From assembly GCA_016839785.1 (NCBI GenBank), contig JAEOTQ010000012.1, positions 1 through 22,508 on the forward strand: a stretch of 22,508 bases of DNA. Direction: 5' to 3'. Under the pieces are notes generated by a model. It did not search any database. It worked only from the letters and a program-made list of their open reading frames with translations, and was not told where the DNA came from. The translations under genes were made by a program, and so were the position numbers. Positions within the stretch are counted from its first letter, which is position 1. Every line of letters starts with the position of its first letter. The DNA comes from Candidatus Hodarchaeota archaeon (GTDB taxonomy: Archaea; Asgardarchaeota; Heimdallarchaeia; Hodarchaeales; Hodarchaeaceae). This document shows, in pieces, positions 6,893 through 21,158 of the stretch.

Positions 6893-7759
6893 TCAATCTA
6901 ATACCTCCTTGAGTATAGTTCTGGTAATCATTTCAGCCATGTGCATTCTATATTTCTTGCTGGCACGTATATCGTCAATTGGTCTCAAGATTGGCGTAAT
7001 TATTTCCCATATATCTCTGAATTTTGCTTCATCAAGTTCCTTTCGATCTCGAACAATATTATCGGATATATCGATCAATAGAGGAGTTGGAGCCATGGCG
7101 GTATAAGATAAGCACGTCTTTTTTTCATTGTGAAAGCAAGCTACGCCAACTAGCGCTAAGTCTTCTGAACTTCGCTTCATCTTCTTAAAAGAGGATCTTG
7201 ATCCCTTCTTAGGACGCGGTATACTAATAGAAGTAATAATTTCATCTGAAGATAAGAGATTACGTTTTACACCAGTAAAAAACTGATTGATTGGGACTGT
7301 CCGTTGCCCCTTTGCTAGGGATGAAATATTAATTTGTGCATCTAAAACGTAAAGAGAAGCTGCAGAGTCAGCTGCAGGTGATGATGTACCAATATTTCCA
7401 CCAATAGTAGCCCGATATCGAAGAATTTCGTCCGCTCAATCTGCTAAGGATTGATATAGTGCGAGATATTCCTCTTTTATAATTGGGATTGTAAGAACTT
7501 CTATAATAGGTGTGACAGCACCAATTTTAAGTTCTTGTTCCGTTATTTTTATAGTTTGAAGTTCTGGTATCATTTTCAGATTAATAAGAACTTTTGGTTG
7601 AATTAGTCGATGACGTAGTTCGATTAATAAATCTGTTCCCCCTGCAAGTAATCGTGCTTTATTTTGATACTGATCAAGAAGCTCTAAAGCTTCTTTTAAA
7701 GATGAAGGAGTAATTAAATTAAATTTTGGAAGACTTGAGAATGAAATTGAATTATTCAT
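6893..7759 (-). pseudogene. Xanthine dehydrogenase/CoxM-family FAD-binding medium subunit interrupted by one in-frame TGA (nonsense allele, sequence error or recoded codon)
   Basis: ORFs 7436-7759 and 6893-7180 are in the same frame. The 85 codons between them are open: ...YQSLAD*ADEILRYRATIGGNIGTSSPAADSAASLYVLDA...FFTGVKRNLLSSDEIITSISIP...FKKMKRSSEDLA. Full length is 288 aa with AGGTDL, RATIGGN and DDIRASKKYR motifs. TGA at 7436-7438 is codon 108. Confidence 0.88.
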
Positions 7760-10131
7760 TTTTCTTCCTCCATCAATTTTTCTTTCAAAGAAGCAATAAT
7801 CTCAGGTCTTTGCTTTTGAATTTCTGTCCATACTCTCTCTGAAGTAATAGGTAAATCAAATATATCAACATTCATTGCATCTGCAATCGCGTTTCCCAAA
7901 GCAGCAGGGACTCCTATCATTGTAAGTTCCCCAATACCTCTAGCTCCATAGGGACCATCTTCTTGAGGATTTTCAATGAAGTGTGTAATGAATTCCTTTG
8001 GAATATCTCCAGGACGAGAAATAATATAATCCACAAAGCTGGGGTTTAGAAGTTCCCCTGTGTCAGAATATTGTAGCTGTTCAGACATGGCAATCGAGAG
8101 GGCCATAACACTCCCTCCAATAACTTGTCCTTCGCACAATTGTGGGTTGATAGCTTTTCCAATATCAAAAGCGGATATTAATTTGTTAATGGTAATTTTT
8201 CCAGTTAATGCATCAAGTTCAATCTCTACTCCTTGAGCTCCAAACGTCTCAAATATTGCAGGATTTCCAGCTCCAGTTTCAGAATCCAGGATAGTCATTT
8301 TAGCAATATATTTTCCATGTCCAATGACAGGACCACCAATAGACTCACCTGTTGGATACATGTAACCCATTACAACTTCTGAAATGCTTAAGTGCTTCCA
8401 AGGCTCCCCACGGGGAGAGATTAATTCATTTTTAATGACTAAATCTTTCTTGGGAACCCGTAGAACTTGCGATGCAGTATCAAAAATCTGGTCTTTTGCG
8501 TTCAGACAGGCATTTTTAACAGCATTTCCATCCATAAATAGAGATCTTGATCCAACAGTTTGCCATGTATAGGCGTCTCTATCTGTATCTCGATCCCCTC
8601 GGATCTTAATCTTTTCTATTGGTAAACCGAGTTCATCTGCAGCAATTTGTGCAAGACTCGTTATAGTACCCTGGCCCATTTCGGAGGTTCCGATTGAAAC
8701 AATTGCACTTCCGTCTTCATTAAATTTCACGTAGGCCGAAGAAGCGCTGTTTGGGGGTTGTGCAGGCCCTTTCATAAAACCAGCAATTCCGATCCCTCTA
8801 AATATCCACGGTTTAAGAGGAGTTGTCTTCTCTTTATTCTTCTTCAGTTCGCTCCAAACTTTATCTAAACATTCATCAATACAACCAGCATCTTCTCTCA
8901 GTCGATGTTGATTTCCTGTAATTCCTGTACCTGGTTTCAGAGTATTTATCTTGCGGAAGATTAACGGATCTATACCTAGTTTTTTAGCAATAATATCGTT
9001 TTGTCGTTCAATTACCCAATGAAGCTCCAAGTGTCCAAAACCGCGGAAAGCGGTCGCATATGGCTTGTTTGTATAGACAGTGTAAGAATCTGATTTGATA
9101 TTCTCAATATCGTAGGGGCCAATTGACACATATCCAGCAGCTCTTCCTACATTCACTGCATAATCGGCACAAGCTCCTGAATCCCATATATATTCGACTT
9201 GTTGGGCTGTAATTTTCCCCTTCTTAGTCACACCTGTTTTTAATTTTGCTACCATTCCAACTCGAATTGGTGCACTTTTAAAGTTCTCTTCTCTCGTTAA
9301 AGACAATTTAACAGGACGATTGTTTGCTTTTCGAGAGAGTAAAACAGCTAGTGGTTCAAAATTTAACCCTGCCTTTCCTCCAAATCCTCCTCCTAGGAAA
9401 GGTGATTTCACAGTTATATTAGATGTCTGAGTTGCGAATGTAATTCCCAACAAATATCGTACAGTAAAAGGAGATTGTGCTGATGACCATACTACGATCG
9501 TTCCGTCTTTTCGGTAGTGTCCTATCGAAACTATTGGTTCTAGGTAAGCATGGGATATCTGTGGCATGCTATATTCATATTCGAAAATTTCATCCGCTTG
9601 TTTAAAACCATGGTCTATATTTCCTTTTCGTAATTTAAAATGGTTTGCAATGTTTGTTCCAGGAATAGGATGAAAAGCAGGTGAATGGTTATAATCAGCC
9701 ATTTTTTCATGAACTAAGCGGTCTTTAGAACTCATTGCCTCGACAGGATCGAAAATAGGCTTTAAAGGGTCATATTTAATTTTTACCAGAGATAGAGCTT
9801 CTTCAGCTATTGTTTCTGATTCTGCAGCCACAGCCACGACAGGTTGTCCAATCCAGACTACTTTTTCAACTGCGAGAATATCTCTATCTCCCGCATAAAG
9901 GCCAATTTTTACAGGCCAATCCTTTCCAGTGACTATTGCCACTACACCAGGTAATTTTTCTGCTTCGGTTGTGTCTATGGAAAGAATTTTTCCATGAGCG
10001 ATTGTAGAGGTGAGAAATTTTCCTATAAGCATATTTGGAATATAATCTATATCAAATGCATACAAAGCTTGGCCTGTAACTTTTTCGTTTGCATCTTTTC
10101 TAGCAACAGATTGACCCACGTATTTAGTCAT
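7756..10131 (-). CDS. Xanthine dehydrogenase/aldehyde oxidoreductase family molybdopterin-binding large subunit
   Basis: 791 aa. HAYLEP, LGGGFGGK, AFRGFG, SEMGQG, TVGSRS, GARGIGE motifs. GAGGTGA RBS at 10139-10145. Stop overlaps the medium subunit start (ATGA). Confidence 0.95.
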   Translation of the reverse strand: MTKYVGQSVARKDANEKVTGQALYAFDIDYIPNMLIGKFLTSTIAHGKILSIDTTEAEKLPGVVAIVTGKDWPVKIGLYAGDRDILAVEKVVWIGQPVVAVAAESETIAEEALSLVKIKYDPLKPIFDPVEAMSSKDRLVHEKMADYNHSPAFHPIPGTNIANHFKLRKGNIDHGFKQADEIFEYEYSMPQISHAYLEPIVSIGHYRKDGTIVVWSSAQSPFTVRYLLGITFATQTSNITVKSPFLGGGFGGKAGLNFEPLAVLLSRKANNRPVKLSLTREENFKSAPIRVGMVAKLKTGVTKKGKITAQQVEYIWDSGACADYAVNVGRAAGYVSIGPYDIENIKSDSYTVYTNKPYATAFRGFGHLELHWVIERQNDIIAKKLGIDPLIFRKINTLKPGTGITGNQHRLREDAGCIDECLDKVWSELKKNKEKTTPLKPWIFRGIGIAGFMKGPAQPPNSASSAYVKFNEDGSAIVSIGTSEMGQGTITSLAQIAADELGLPIEKIKIRGDRDTDRDAYTWQTVGSRSLFMDGNAVKNACLNAKDQIFDTASQVLRVPKKDLVIKNELISPRGEPWKHLSISEVVMGYMYPTGESIGGPVIGHGKYIAKMTILDSETGAGNPAIFETFGAQGVEIELDALTGKITINKLISAFDIGKAINPQLCEGQVIGGSVMALSIAMSEQLQYSDTGELLNPSFVDYIISRPGDIPKEFITHFIENPQEDGPYGARGIGELTMIGVPAALGNAIADAMNVDIFDLPITSERVWTEIQKQRPEIIASLKEKLMEEEK

Positions 10132-10170: not shown

Positions 10171-10467
10171 TCATCCTCCTCCTACAATTTCCAAGAATCC
10201 AATTCGATCAACTCTTAATTGGTCTTTAGTATTCAAAATCATGTCTAAACCTGTTTTAGTTTGATTAACCACATGTCCATTTACTAATAGTATGGTTGCC
10301 TGATGTAATCTATCATGATCGAGAATAAGTGTTTTCAAATCGGGATCTTTTTGGATTAACATATATACAATATCACGAATTGTTGGGTTTTCATCTAGAA
10401 TCTCTAACTCGATTTCAGAACCTAGATTCGCGCCTAATTTTCCAAAAAGTTGAACAAATATTTTCAT
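10171..10467 (-). CDS. MoaD/ThiS/SAMP-family ubiquitin-like sulfur carrier
   Basis: 98 aa beta-grasp pattern (MKIFVQLFGKL...TIRDIV...ILLVNG) ending in GGG; directly upstream of a molybdoenzyme. Confidence 0.85.
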   Translation of the reverse strand: MKIFVQLFGKLGANLGSEIELEILDENPTIRDIVYMLIQKDPDLKTLILDHDRLHQATILLVNGHVVNQTKTGLDMILNTKDQLRVDRIGFLEIVGGG

Positions 10468-17865: not shown

Positions 17866-19236
17866 TTGTTCGGAGAACCAAATAAATTCACGTGGCAAAT
17901 CGCTCAGAAGTCTAAATTGCGTGAAGGATCAGATGGTATTGACAAAATAATTAGGCAGCTCTATAGAAACCAAGATCATAAACTTACTAATAAGGAATTT
18001 GCGAAGTTAGTCGGAATTCCTGTACCAGTTATCTCTGCGGTTCGTGGGGAATTGATAAAAGCAGAATTTTTAAAAACGAAAAATATCCTAAGTTCGAAAG
18101 CTATTTCCTGGATTGAAAAAGAATTAGGTCTACGATTCGATTATAGTTTTTTTCAGGGATTTTCACCATCTTCTCCTTCAATATCAACCGAACATTTGTC
18201 ATTTTTTAAACCCATTATTGACGCATTAGATGATCGTCCCCCTCCTGAGTACAAGTATGATCAAACAAGAAGCACTACTGAGACTGTTTTGAAACGAGCT
18301 TTAATAATGGCTCGAAATGGAGATGTAGAAGGAAGAAAAATAGTTTTACTTGGCGATGATGATGGATTATCAATGGCACTTGCACATCTTGACTGTGCCC
18401 GTGAAATTGTTGTAATAGATATTGATTCACGAATTTTAAAGGTAATAGAAGATTTTTCCAAGCGAAATAACTATTCAACCTTAATACGTACCCATTTATG
18501 GGATATAAGAACCGCTTTTCCGAAGGAATGGCTAAATTACTTTGATACTTTTGAAATGGACCCACCTTACACTGTATCAGGGTTTAAATTATTTGTATCA
18601 CGCGCTCTTTCATTAATAAATCCTAGTTCAACTTCACATGGCTATATTTCATTTGGAAATAAATCACCGTTTGAAAAATGGGAGTGTCAGGAACATTTAA
18701 ACACCAATGGGCTTGTAATTGAAGAATTTATTCCTAATTTCAATAGCTATATTGGAGCGACAATTCTAGGGAGTTCATCCAATCTCTATATCGTTGGCTC
18801 AATCCCACAAAAAGTGTTTAGAACAGAATTACCAGACCAAACGCAAGCAATCTATACTTTTGACGAAAACAAAGTTAAGGATTTACCAACTGTAGGATAC
18901 CAAATTATTGCTGAACTCTATGGTGTAAGCAACGAAATCCTGACTAATGTCACATTACTAAAGGAAATCGCTTCACTTGGATTAGAGCATAGTCAACTTC
19001 ATGCAGAAGAATTCTTTTTAAAAGAATATTCTCCCTACGGACTTTCAGTCATCTTTATCTTGGTAGAAAGTCACTGTCACATCCATACGTGGCCTGAGTA
19101 TAACTACTTATCTTTAGATTTATTCGTGTGTGAAGCTAAAGAAAAAGCCGAAACATTCTTTCACTACTTATTAAAACGAATTAACCCAGTAGATTATCAC
19201 AAGTTTCAGTTTTATCGGGGACGTCCTCAACTATAA
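17866..19236 (+). CDS. bpsA: Fusion: branched-chain polyamine synthase (BpsA/DUF43-type aminopropyltransferase) plus C-terminal pyruvoyl-dependent S-adenosylmethionine decarboxylase (SpeD-type) domain
   Basis: Residues 1 to about 340: RPPPEYKYDQ, TETVLKR, GDVEGRKIVLLGDDD, VIDIDSRIL, DPPYT. Residues about 343-456: GYQIIAELYG, YSPYGLS, LVESHCHIHTWPEYNYLSLDLFVC with self-cleavage site E401/S402. One uninterrupted frame, TTG start. Confidence 0.88.
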   Translation: MFGEPNKFTWQIAQKSKLREGSDGIDKIIRQLYRNQDHKLTNKEFAKLVGIPVPVISAVRGELIKAEFLKTKNILSSKAISWIEKELGLRFDYSFFQGFSPSSPSISTEHLSFFKPIIDALDDRPPPEYKYDQTRSTTETVLKRALIMARNGDVEGRKIVLLGDDDGLSMALAHLDCAREIVVIDIDSRILKVIEDFSKRNNYSTLIRTHLWDIRTAFPKEWLNYFDTFEMDPPYTVSGFKLFVSRALSLINPSSTSHGYISFGNKSPFEKWECQEHLNTNGLVIEEFIPNFNSYIGATILGSSSNLYIVGSIPQKVFRTELPDQTQAIYTFDENKVKDLPTVGYQIIAELYGVSNEILTNVTLLKEIASLGLEHSQLHAEEFFLKEYSPYGLSVIFILVESHCHIHTWPEYNYLSLDLFVCEAKEKAETFFHYLLKRINPVDYHKFQFYRGRPQL

Positions 19237-19261: not shown

Positions 19262-19915
19262 ATGTCAAGTCGTTTAGACGTCGAAAACAATGAATTCAAC
19301 TTTCTAAACGAACTAGGAAGGAAAGCAGTACATTTAACTGTGTTAATTATTCCGTTTAGTTACCACGTACTTAAAATTAAGTTGTGGTTCATTCAATTGT
19401 CATTATTTGGTGTTTTATGCTTTTTCATCCCAATGGAGTTGTATCGTCTAAAGGTCAATCCAAGAACCTGGCTTAACTATATTACTCGGGAAGCCGAAAA
19501 GGATGAAGTAGCAAATTATATTCCTTCAACACTAATTTGGTTAGCAGTATTGCTAGGAGTTTACTGGTTCTACTCAATGGAAGTAGCAGAATTGGCATTA
19601 ATTGCAACCACACTTGGAGATTCTGCTGCAGCGTTAATTGGAAGGGGATTAGGCCAGCACAAATTGCCTTTTACCAAGGAGAAAACAATAGAAGGTTATT
19701 TGGGAGGAGTGGTATTCACTTATATCTTCGGATTTGCTTTTCTCTCGATTATTGGAATGCCCTCATTATTACTACCCCTCCTACCAACTGTTGCAATAGC
19801 ATTTTTCGATTTTTTTGAAGATTTACCATATTGGGCTGCTGATAATCTATTTCATCCATTAATCACGCTTATTCTTGCATATATTTTGGTTCTTATGGGT
19901 ATTATAAGCACTTGA
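19262..19915 (+). CDS. CTP-dependent isoprenoid-alcohol kinase family (dolichol/phytol kinase, Sec59/Vte5/Dgk1-like) membrane protein
   Basis: ELGRKAVH, LGDSAAALIGRGLG, KTIEG and DNL motifs; hydrophobic. Confidence 0.82.
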   Translation: MSSRLDVENNEFNFLNELGRKAVHLTVLIIPFSYHVLKIKLWFIQLSLFGVLCFFIPMELYRLKVNPRTWLNYITREAEKDEVANYIPSTLIWLAVLLGVYWFYSMEVAELALIATTLGDSAAALIGRGLGQHKLPFTKEKTIEGYLGGVVFTYIFGFAFLSIIGMPSLLLPLLPTVAIAFFDFFEDLPYWAADNLFHPLITLILAYILVLMGIIST

Positions 19916-19925
19916 TAACTCAAGA

Positions 19926-20636
19926 CTATTTTCCTGTTAAGGGAATCATCTTATTTGAATTGCACAGCTCACAATGATTATTCTTGATGAAGCAATCTTT
20001 GCAATAGGGCGTATTACAACTGGAGTTTCCACATTGAACCGTCGCAAGAGCATCACATGAGTTACAGACGATTTTAGAACCAAATAAATTCCGAGATTGC
20101 CCGTAACGCTTGATCCTGTAATAAATTATTATAGAAAGCAGTAGTAGAAGAAGGAAAAGAAATGGAATGAAAAACGGAAGATCAAATAGTGTTGTGGGAA
20201 TCTCTGTAACATCAAGTAGTATCTCTGATAATGTTACTTGATAGACTAAATCTTCTAAATAGAATGGATCTGTTATATTATGAAATGCCTCTCCACTCGA
20301 GAAATCCACATCGAATGTTTTTGTGTTACCTGCCTTCATACCTAGAATACCATGTAAAAATCCAACATTTGGTGGAACAGTAAGATCTGGGTATTGTTCA
20401 TATAACTCGGAGGGTGCACTAGGATCATTTGGATCATGAACCCATACCGTACCGTTCTGTTGTTCAACTATAGCCGTTTTTACCCACAATGTATAATTAA
20501 GCTTTACAACATCATTGAGTTCTACAAGAGTATCGGGTGTAACGTCTAACGCGCTATTTAGCTGATACTGATTAACAGAAGCTGGAATCATTAAAAACAA
20601 AAGTATAGTTAGTGGTAATAAGCCTCTATAATCCAT
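19926..20636 (-). CDS. Type I membrane protein: signal peptide, FKBP-like PPIase domain, TM helix, cytoplasmic Cys8 zinc finger
   Basis: N-terminal hydrophobic LLPLTILLFLMIPAS; FKBP-like VELNDVVKLNYTLW...GFLHGILGMKAGNTKTFDV...EAF...LVYQVTL; TM FFIPFLFLLLLLLSIIIYY followed by RIKR; C-x2-C-x7-C-x4-C-x4-C-x2-C-x6-C-x2-C at 19962-20066. ATG at 20636 (alternative GTG 20648). Confidence 0.75.
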   Translation of the reverse strand: MDYRGLLPLTILLFLMIPASVNQYQLNSALDVTPDTLVELNDVVKLNYTLWVKTAIVEQQNGTVWVHDPNDPSAPSELYEQYPDLTVPPNVGFLHGILGMKAGNTKTFDVDFSSGEAFHNITDPFYLEDLVYQVTLSEILLDVTEIPTTLFDLPFFIPFLFLLLLLLSIIIYYRIKRYGQSRNLFGSKIVCNSCDALATVQCGNSSCNTPYCKDCFIKNNHCELCNSNKMIPLTGK

Positions 20637-20753
20637 TCTAAACCACACGGTAAATCAATGAGTCATTATTCTAGATAAGTTTTTTATATTTATTTCCTTA
20701 AAATAGGAGAAGAAAAATATTATGCTCTAAGAATTATCACAGGTATAGTGAAA

Positions 20754-21158
20754 ATGGGAACAAATTCAGATTTTAGATTAAAATTTGTGCTTCAAGGCTG
20801 GGCTGCTAATAGTACACGCCGATCAGAGGGAGTAGCCTTCGTGGCTCTAGATCCAGCTTCCGCTCGTGCAATAATTGAAAATTTCCGCGATAAAACTCCA
20901 AGAATCCTAATATCTCCCTTGATAGATTGGTCTTGGTCGGATATCGCTAATAATGTTGCAGGAGTTGTTACAGATCATGGAACGAGAGTATCAAGAGGCT
21001 CAGAAGTCTCAAGTATTGTACAAGTTGCTGCTGTGCTGGGAACTAGAGATGCTACTACTAAAATTAAGGATGGAGATTATATTCAGATTATTTGTGAGGG
21101 AAATGAGGCACTAGCGAAAGTTTTTGAACCAATAATAGGAAAATTAGATGATAGATAA
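20754..21158 (+). CDS. Stand-alone PEP-utilising enzyme mobile (swivel/phosphohistidine) domain lacking the catalytic His
   Basis: AGVVTDHGTRVSRGSEVSSIVQVAAVLGTRDATTKIKDGD aligns with the family pattern AGIVTDxGGxTSHAAIVARExGIPAVVGTxxATxxLKDGD; TSH reads VSR. Confidence 0.78.
   Translation: MGTNSDFRLKFVLQGWAANSTRRSEGVAFVALDPASARAIIENFRDKTPRILISPLIDWSWSDIANNVAGVVTDHGTRVSRGSEVSSIVQVAAVLGTRDATTKIKDGDYIQIICEGNEALAKVFEPIIGKLDDR

Follow-up and report, generated by a model that had tools for sequence, protein, structure and literature searches.

A conserved archaeal membrane protein joins a divergent FKBP-fold domain to a predicted cytoplasmic B-box-1-like finger

The extracellular folding of secreted and surface proteins is poorly known in archaea, and the origin of the folding machinery in the lumen of the endoplasmic reticulum (ER) is an open question. 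Bacteria place several peptidyl-prolyl cis-trans isomerases (PPIases) outside the cytoplasmic membrane, including Legionella Mip, FkpA and PrsA, of which Mip and FkpA have the FKBP fold. These proteins are soluble, lipid-anchored or helix-dimerised, and none is known to connect a transmembrane helix with a zinc finger in the cytoplasm. In eukaryotes, a study on human FKBP11 (FKBP19) describes binding to the ribosome-associated translocons of ER secretion, where the protein's positively charged C-terminal helix adjoins uL22 and 28S rRNA and matters for ribosome binding (PMC12804085). Here, we describe a minus-strand gene within a 22,508-nt stretch of DNA from Candidatus Hodarchaeota archaeon, a Heimdall-group Asgard archaeon (assembly GCA_016839785.1, contig JAEOTQ010000012.1, positions 1 to 22,508; hereafter, the window). 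Its 236-residue product consists of a hydrophobic N-terminal leader, an FKBP-fold ectodomain, one transmembrane helix and a tail with eight cysteines. We propose, with a probability of about one half, that it works at the cell surface as a foldase or holdase tethered to the membrane, and that its basic zinc tail serves for docking or assembly.

The open reading frame (ORF) spans 19926..20648 on the minus strand, opening at a GTG and ending at a TAG stop codon (19926..19928). An internal ATG at 20636 is the protein start, because every homologue in our alignment begins at the equivalent methionine, and the span of 19926..20636 given by the original prediction is therefore exact. We found 30 homologues of the protein at E ≤ 0.01. 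Using a profile of its own family (A1), we also found full-length orthologues (E ≤ 1e-85) in 17 of the 20 other genomes of the genus, which is the whole of family f1. A further genome has a weaker, paralogue-type match, and completeness is 74% and 70% in the two that lack one. The number of homologues and the recurrence of orthologues show that the gene is not a chance ORF. Conservation was read from an alignment of 25 homologues with 45–83% identity to the window protein. A run of an RNA library contained two 151-nt contigs within the gene, which we did not count as evidence of transcription since DNA carry-over is possible.

The model and the profile searches confirm that the predicted ectodomain (residues 33-144; 20205..20540, minus strand) has a divergent FKBP fold. 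An AlphaFold model built from 25 sequences has a predicted local distance difference test (pLDDT) score of ~90 across residues 40-140. Foldseek matched the ectodomain model to 19 PDB structures at E ≤ 0.001, and those listed are SlyD, archaeal FKBP26, FKBP13 and FKBP11. The FKBP domain of ttSlyD was found at an E-value of 3.1e-5 and FKBP2 with a template-modelling score (TMt) of 0.75, while FKBP2, Mip, trigger factor and other FKBPs filled the range from 1e-3 to 5e-3. The Foldseek probability of the fold was 1.00. Structure comparison by VIA yielded Z-scores of 12.6 for Thermus SlyD (root-mean-square deviation of 1.7 Å across 87 residues, 21% identity), 11.7 for FKBP13 and 11.5 for FKBP2. Altogether, 253 of 993 chains had a Z-score of at least 8, and all listed ones are FKBP or trigger-factor domains.

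Sequence homology leads to the same fold transitively, so that the FKBP-like ectodomain first read from the DNA holds on both counts. The A1 profile, searched against 1.84 billion representatives, recovered 52 proteins at E ≤ 0.001. Among the 46 of these relatives that were scanned, Pfam FKBP_C matched 25 at E ≤ 0.01, with 23 above its cut-off and a best E-value of 9.4e-16. A2, a 50-row profile drawn from the wider family, matched the archaeal FKBP 1ix5_A (1.4e-7) and trigger-factor PPIase domains (3e-7) in the PDB, as well as FKBP26, FKBP3 and FKBP2. The top PDB row of the A1 profile, 6jdd (E of 0.026), was rejected as a chance patch. We take Y48, E58, Y82, F93, F118 and Y132 to be the equivalents of FKBP12 pocket residues Y26, D37, F46, W59, Y82 and F99, respectively. 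This mapping, which was read from the profile and homologue alignments with FKBP12 numbering, is tentative; it suggests that the pocket positions are largely retained, and Y132 is invariant.

The window protein has two hydrophobic segments, at residues 5-21 and 155-171, and R174-I-K-R177 follows the second, as originally noted. The leader (residues 1-21, MDYRGLLPLTILLFLMIPASV; 20574..20636, minus strand) would be a signal peptide or an N-terminal anchor. Its hydropathy peaks at residues 5-21, the model has a helix at residues 3-20 and a low-confidence linker at 18-31, and homologues have a basic residue ahead of its hydrophobic core. The single transmembrane helix (L153-Y173; 20118..20180, minus strand) has a hydropathy peak of 3.14 at residues 155-171 and is modelled as a helix at 156-182. 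It is followed by the basic juxtamembrane stretch R174-R182 (RIKRYGQSR; 20091..20117, minus strand), a positive-inside signal in which R174 is invariant and I175, K176 and R177 are at least 90% conserved.

To gauge the likely orientation of the protein, we scored hydropathy and charge by script in 30 core-clade sequences. In the window protein, the 12 residues after the transmembrane helix include four lysines and arginines, versus none before it, and the core-clade means are 3.7 and 0.07, respectively. All eight cysteines of the window protein are in its tail and none in its ectodomain; core-clade members have eight per tail and 0–2 per ectodomain, with 10 summed over all the ectodomains. Core-clade ectodomains contain, on average, 3.5 N-x-S/T sequons, which may be glycosylated. 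The window protein's are N47-Y-T49 (20490-20498; N47 and T49 invariant), N61-G-T63 (20448-20456; N61 and T63 at least 90% conserved) and N120-I-T122 (20271..20279; N120 invariant), all on the minus strand; NYT and NGT coincide with FKBP core motifs. Because of the charge asymmetry, the location of cysteines only or mainly in the tail and the concentration of sequons in the ectodomain, we infer that the FKBP domain lies outside the cell and the finger in the cytoplasm.

The finger, a predicted cytoplasmic two-zinc module of eight cysteines with a B-box-1-like, RING-superfamily fold, covers C191-P232 (19941..20066, minus strand). Its pattern, C191-x2-C194-x7-C202-x4-C207-x4-C212-x2-C215-x6-C222-x2-C225, has exactly the spacing of the original prediction. 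All eight cysteines are invariant in 25/25 homologues, and so are G203, N204, T209, K213, S227 and N228; F216 is strictly conserved along with K213 and the S227-N228 motif. Modelled by itself from a 50-row alignment, the segment of residues 183-236 adopts a beta-beta-alpha-beta layout with high confidence (pLDDT of 90.4 and predicted template-modelling score of 0.71). Foldseek returned no match to the tail alone at E ≤ 0.001. Its first row was the PML B1-box (E of 0.09), and below it came the RINGs of TRAF6, Ring1b, Bre1, IDOL and cIAP2, the ZFYVE19 B-box and the p62 ZZ domain.

An independent VIA search of the tail against 48,161 chains found four with a Z-score of at least 5 (BIRC7 RING, 5.6; IDOL RING, 5.2; Prp19 U-box, 5.2; MIB1 RING, 5.0), and almost all the rows under 5 were RING, U-box, B-box or ZZ domains. 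In a second look, 16 of 944 chains reached that score, including PML B1 at 5.0 and BIRC7 RING at up to 5.7. The tail model superposes on RING, U-box and B-box domains over 52 of its 54 residues, with Z-scores that do not exceed 5.7 (below 8). Though the Z-scores are modest, the top structural matches are uniform in kind, and the confident model places the finger within the RING/B-box structural superfamily, in contrast to a fold of paired simple zinc ribbons. Such a fold would be expected to bind zinc in a cross-brace manner.

In sequence, the finger leans towards B-box 1. A tail-only profile (A5, 23 rows) had a sole significant PDB match, PML B-box 1, with six cysteines in register (E of 3.2e-4, 23.7 bits); weaker rows were the CPEB1 ZZ domain (0.048), the ZFYVE19 B-box (0.22), the BIRC7 RING and TRIM28 B-box (both 0.28) and MID1 B-box 1 (0.76). 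Pfam zf-B_box does not match the finger. At E ≤ 10, the Pfam rows for the window protein are at noise level: Prok-RING_1 (E of 2.2, 8.7 bits versus a cut-off of 29.1), ANCHR-like_BBOX (2.7, and also sub-threshold at 8.7e-4 in the relative P0046) and CEBP_ZZ (4). An ESM Atlas search with the tail had a best score of 0.81, inside the range of shuffled sequences. B-box 1 domains follow the spacing C-x2-C-x(7-10)-C-x2-C-x(4-5)-C-x2-C/H-x(3-6)-H-x(2-8)-H. Remote members of the family agree with this spacing at their first six ligands, having a B-box-1-like C3-x2-C4 where the window clade has C3-x4-C4 (C-G-N-x-S-C), and the last two ligands are cysteine instead of histidine. The sixth ligand is cysteine in most members and His, Asp or Ser in a subgroup. 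Across the family, the tail conserves F or Y after C6 (22/23), S and then N after C8 (18/23 and 17/23), and a hydrophobic residue plus proline that closes the last strand. All 23 aligned tails are net positive, from +1 to +13. Residues 183-236 of the window protein have a net charge of +2, and the stretch from R174 to K236 has nine K/R versus three D/E.

The same finger is carried by a second type of extracytoplasmic enzyme in the sister family f3. Two of the four long frames examined, from genomes G145 and G127, consist of a leader, a Redoxin/AhpC-TSA/Thioredoxin domain (WCPPC or WCSPC), a transmembrane helix and this finger. Full-length copies are present in 12 of the 83 genomes of the class, with one more cut at a contig end, and all belong to f3. 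As two different extracytoplasmic folding catalysts use one cytoplasmic module, the data favour a tag for docking or assembly over a ligase with a specific substrate; the tail on an exported thioredoxin-like enzyme fits the former better than the ligase first imagined.

We also followed the finger by itself, using the A5 profile. It is present in 58 of 61 genomes in four families of the class (f1, 18/20; f3, 28/29; f4, 11/11; f5, 1/1), and was not detected in families f2 (0/2), f6 (0/3) and f7 (0/11) of the same class. Other classes, sampled as part of 301 genomes of the phylum, have it in only five genomes. One public homologue of the window protein is labelled Thorarchaeota. Nearly all matches terminate frames of 210–280 residues. 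Weak tail matches outside the class were rejected as other finger proteins, a 398-residue vWA-RING-type protein and a tail-anchored, B-box-like protein of 107 residues.

Finger genes of family f3 occur in tandem arrays of two or three. An array that we opened (L056; G202:C5:17300-20300) encodes three proteins with a signal peptide, FKBP-like domain, transmembrane helix and finger (226, 201 and 217 residues), two of which pass or touch the FKBP_C cut-off. The gene immediately upstream of it encodes a Ras/Rab-like small GTPase, and arrays of two or three genes resembling it are found in at least 14 other genomes by the tail search.

The window's own genome also has FKBP-transmembrane paralogues with other tails. 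Two membrane-anchored, FKBP-like paralogues at C57:8689-9162 and C137:22840-23229 (L017 and L019) have no finger. The first kind combines a Thr-rich stalk with a charged '...KELRELAES...KFRRRR' tail, and the other has an extra ectodomain of ~130 residues. A decayed paralogue at C11:32784-33019 (about 1500-1740 of L006, minus strand) retains the transmembrane helix and finger in two frames and has no ectodomain. It is convergent to a 219-residue paralogue of the window gene's downstream, CTP_transf_1-like neighbour, and another genome of the genus has the same remnant (G119:C66).

We favour a mechanism in which the window protein is a type I (or hairpin-anchored) membrane protein with its FKBP-fold domain facing the cell exterior. 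There, the tethered domain would most likely serve proteins as they emerge from the membrane, as a prolyl isomerase or a holdase, in the manner of bacterial Mip, FkpA and PrsA and of the ER FKBPs. We propose this PPIase or chaperone activity by analogy. In the cytoplasm, the C-terminal 45 residues, a predicted basic two-zinc B-box-1-like finger, would provide a docking or assembly module. The tail could anchor the foldase at a cytoplasmic partner, the ribosome or Sec translocon, like the basic tail of human FKBP11. Alternatively, it could self-associate, as B-boxes do.

Several results weigh against this mechanism. Neither Pfam nor NCBIfam assigns the window protein to a family: Pfam has nothing at E ≤ 0.01, and FKBP_C does not match even at E ≤ 10. 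The A1 profile alone has no significant match among PDB sequences. The domain is therefore very divergent, and with such divergence catalysis may have been lost; the equivalent of FKBP12 Tyr82 is Phe118 in the window clade. For the tail, the Z-scores of at most 5.7 are in a range that VIA calls common, and its proposed partner is put forward by analogy. Our queries did not find a thioredoxin with this finger in the window's genome or genus. The finger is thus common to the FKBP and thioredoxin-like enzymes in the sister family and not in this genome. The homologous exported thioredoxin-like protein of the genus ends in a four-cysteine ribbon, and the genome's own copy is tailless. We observed that cytoplasmic zinc ribbon, CPKCG...C-x2-CG, at two loci of the genus, L065 (G241:C1) and L066 (G262:C107), and its presence indicates that exported folding enzymes repeatedly bear zinc-binding tails, of more than one kind. 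The RING-like fold of the finger, together with a complete ubiquitin system in the genome, keeps a ligase role alive. Finally, the FKBP11 study argues that FKBP11 at the translocon is an adaptor and not an isomerase, and the analogy gives catalysis no support (PMC12804085).

The first alternative, which we consider unlikely, is a signalling or clustering receptor. A non-catalytic FKBP-like module would bind a ligand or peptide, and B-box-like tails, self-associating like the B-boxes of PML and TRIM proteins, would signal whether it is occupied or assemble into a lattice close to the membrane. The PML B1-box, which forms multimers, matches the tail best both in sequence and by Foldseek, the ectodomain is too divergent for Pfam, and tandem arrays of two or three paralogues, as in the sister lineages, are common in receptor families. 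However, no conserved signalling gene adjoins the target at the orthologous loci, the FKBP pocket positions appear largely retained, and remote members have canonical FKBP_C domains.

Less likely again is a transmembrane ubiquitin ligase (E3), in which the FKBP ectodomain would be the sensor of surface proteins that are unfolded or contain proline and the finger would recruit an Asgard ubiquitin-conjugating enzyme (E2) to ubiquitylate itself or its client. The original prediction cited ubiquitin, a ubiquitin-activating enzyme (E1), E2s and RING proteins in Asgard archaea, and this genome does encode them all. It has three UQ_con E2s above cut-off (contigs C114, C163 and C116), one of them with a W-S-P-A loop, and two ubiquitin-like frames. 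An operon contains ubiquitin-like, ThiF-type E1, E2 and JAB deubiquitylase genes, and there is a second E2-JAB pair. Over 52–53 of 54 residues, the finger model also matches E2-binding RINGs, namely BIRC7 (Z of 5.6–5.7), IDOL (5.2), and cIAP1 and XIAP (5.2), and the last cysteine pair has a RING-like C-P-x-C in 12 of 23 family tails.

The accompanying proposal of a PA-TM-RING-like E3 for surface quality control, however, gained no positive support. The RING consensus is C-x2-C-x(9-39)-C-x(1-3)-H-x(2-3)-C-x2-C-x(4-48)-C-x2-C. The finger departs from it at the second, third and fourth spacings (7, 4 and 4 residues), and it has no His ligand. RING models match none of it, although they readily detect the genome's true RINGs; zf-RING_2 has six matches in the genome, two above cut-off, and the target gene is not among them. 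In solved complexes, RINGs contact E2s through a hydrophobic residue at C1+2, another in the helix, a proline after C7 and a basic linchpin after C8. These positions are not conserved across the 23 tails, where I, L or V is found at C1+2 in 5/23 (Ser in the window protein), a hydrophobic residue at C6+4 in 0/16, Pro at C7+1 in 12/23 (window, Glu) and K or R at C8+1 in 9/23 (window, Asn). No ubiquitin-system gene adjoins the target in 17/17 orthologous loci, and a dedicated ligase would not be expected to share its tail with a thioredoxin-like ectoenzyme.

Least likely of the three, the finger would bind nucleic acid or acidic lipid, with no protein partner, and would simply reinforce how a surface FKBP is retained or oriented in the membrane. 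This could be suggested by the net positive charge of every aligned tail, by the start of the finger only ~17 residues past the membrane and by a VIA match to 9fhl_a, a zinc-binding archaeal small-subunit ribosomal protein (Z of 4.5). However, the window protein's finger segment has a net charge of only +2, the strictly kept F216, K213 and S227-N228 suggest a specific protein surface, and many FKBP-transmembrane paralogues manage with other tails.

The tethered foldase or holdase can be extended to a broader mechanism, about which we are doubtful. Asgard archaea, the archaea nearest to eukaryotes, would already tether folding catalysts (FKBP and, in a sister family, thioredoxin) to the outer membrane face through a common, cytoplasmic B-box-1-like tail that docks at the translating ribosome or Sec translocon. 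If true, ER-lumenal foldases that associate with the translocon, such as FKBP11, would have a prokaryotic forerunner here, and a B-box-type finger would for the first time gain a functional context beyond eukaryotes. In a bolder version, the tail would additionally recruit an Asgard E2, making the protein a primitive membrane quality-control ligase. The family, conserved in several Heimdall-group lineages, joins a predicted outward FKBP domain to a eukaryote-like finger of the B-box/RING superfamily, and it offers a concrete candidate, open to testing, for a folding station tethered to the membrane. The finger is a small, well-behaved archaeal domain for probing the binding of E2s, ribosomes or itself outside eukaryotes.

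We found no full-text description in the literature of an architecture with a signal peptide, FKBP domain, transmembrane helix and finger. The main text of an Asgard structural-clustering preprint mentions RING E3 ligases in passing and contains no occurrence of FKBP, B-box, prolyl or zinc. The literature thus agrees with the earlier view that no prokaryotic protein of this combination has been described, but remote members already have public database entries named 'FKBP-type peptidyl-prolyl cis-trans isomerase', assigned to Heimdallarchaeota or Hodarchaeales.

The surrounding genes are highly syntenic. At the 17 orthologous loci, all from one genus, the target is accompanied by the BpsA/AdoMetDC gene (17/17), the CTP_transf_1-like gene (17/17), a PEP-utilizers mobile-domain gene (15/17) and a coiled-coil gene (17/17). 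We rejected the neighbourhood as a functional clue, since no neighbour has an obvious link to the target and all loci come from one genus, and drew no function from it. The upstream BpsA/AdoMetDC gene is a 456-residue ORF (17866-19236, plus strand) that fuses BpsA_C (branched-chain polyamine synthase) to AdoMet_dc. The CTP_transf_1-like gene (19262-19915, plus strand) is convergent with the target at all 17 loci and encodes a 217-residue multi-pass membrane protein with a weak match (E of 3.4e-7) to a family that takes in CDP-alcohol and dolichol/phytol kinase-type enzymes. It lies downstream of genes for inositol-1-phosphate synthase and a UbiA prenyltransferase, with which it may form a lipid-head-group or polyprenol-phosphate set. 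The mobile-domain gene (20748-21158, plus strand), divergent from the target, encodes a stand-alone, 136-residue phosphohistidine swivel domain.

Farther away in the window, an aldehyde-oxidoreductase/CO-dehydrogenase-type operon includes an FAD-binding medium subunit (FAD_binding_5 and CO_deh_flav_C; 6893-7801, minus strand). Its gene is split by one in-frame TGA at 7436-7438 (...SLAD*ADEILRYRATIGGN...), which could be a pseudogene mutation, a sequencing error or a recoded codon. Beside molybdopterin aldehyde-oxidoreductase genes lies the gene of a 98-residue beta-grasp protein of the ThiS/MoaD family (10171-10467, minus strand), for which a role as sulfur carrier is likelier than one as ubiquitin.

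Compared to known systems, the window protein resembles several in part. It has the layout of the PA-TM-RING E3 ligases (RNF13, RNF43 and GRAIL/RNF128), with an ectodomain, a single transmembrane helix and a cytoplasmic finger of the RING superfamily. Their ectodomain, however, is a protease-associated domain and not an FKBP fold, and their finger is a RING-H2, whereas the window finger lacks a histidine, a match to RING models and conserved E2-contact positions. Human FKBP11 is similar in its leader, non-cytoplasmic FKBP domain, single transmembrane helix and short basic cytoplasmic tail, and VIA aligned 135 residues of FKBP11 (9n9j_A), including the transmembrane helix, with the model range 32-188 (Z of 11.5, 14% identity). 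Its tail is a basic helix rather than a zinc finger, and the likeness, which concerns the layout only, may well be convergent.

Both in structure and in sequence, the ectodomain is matched best by SlyD and the archaeal short FKBPs (ttSlyD, 3cgm; Methanococcus FKBP, 1ix5; MjFKBP26, 3prb), which share with it a Phe in place of Trp in the G-F helix motif. These proteins, unlike the window protein, are cytoplasmic and soluble, carry an insert-in-flap chaperone domain and have no leader, transmembrane helix or such finger. The finger shares its predicted two-zinc fold with type 1 B-boxes (PML B1-box, 2mvw and 6imq; MID1 B-box 1; ZFYVE19/ANCHR B-box). B-boxes end in histidines, whereas the window finger has eight cysteine ligands, and it is placed near the membrane in an archaeal protein and not within a TRIM protein. 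With Mip, FkpA and PrsA, the proposed foldase would have in common that it helps folding outside the cytoplasm, and Mip structures are among the Foldseek matches. Tethered extracytoplasmic FKBPs are a known kind of protein, among which the window protein differs by its unusual, eukaryote-like zinc tail.

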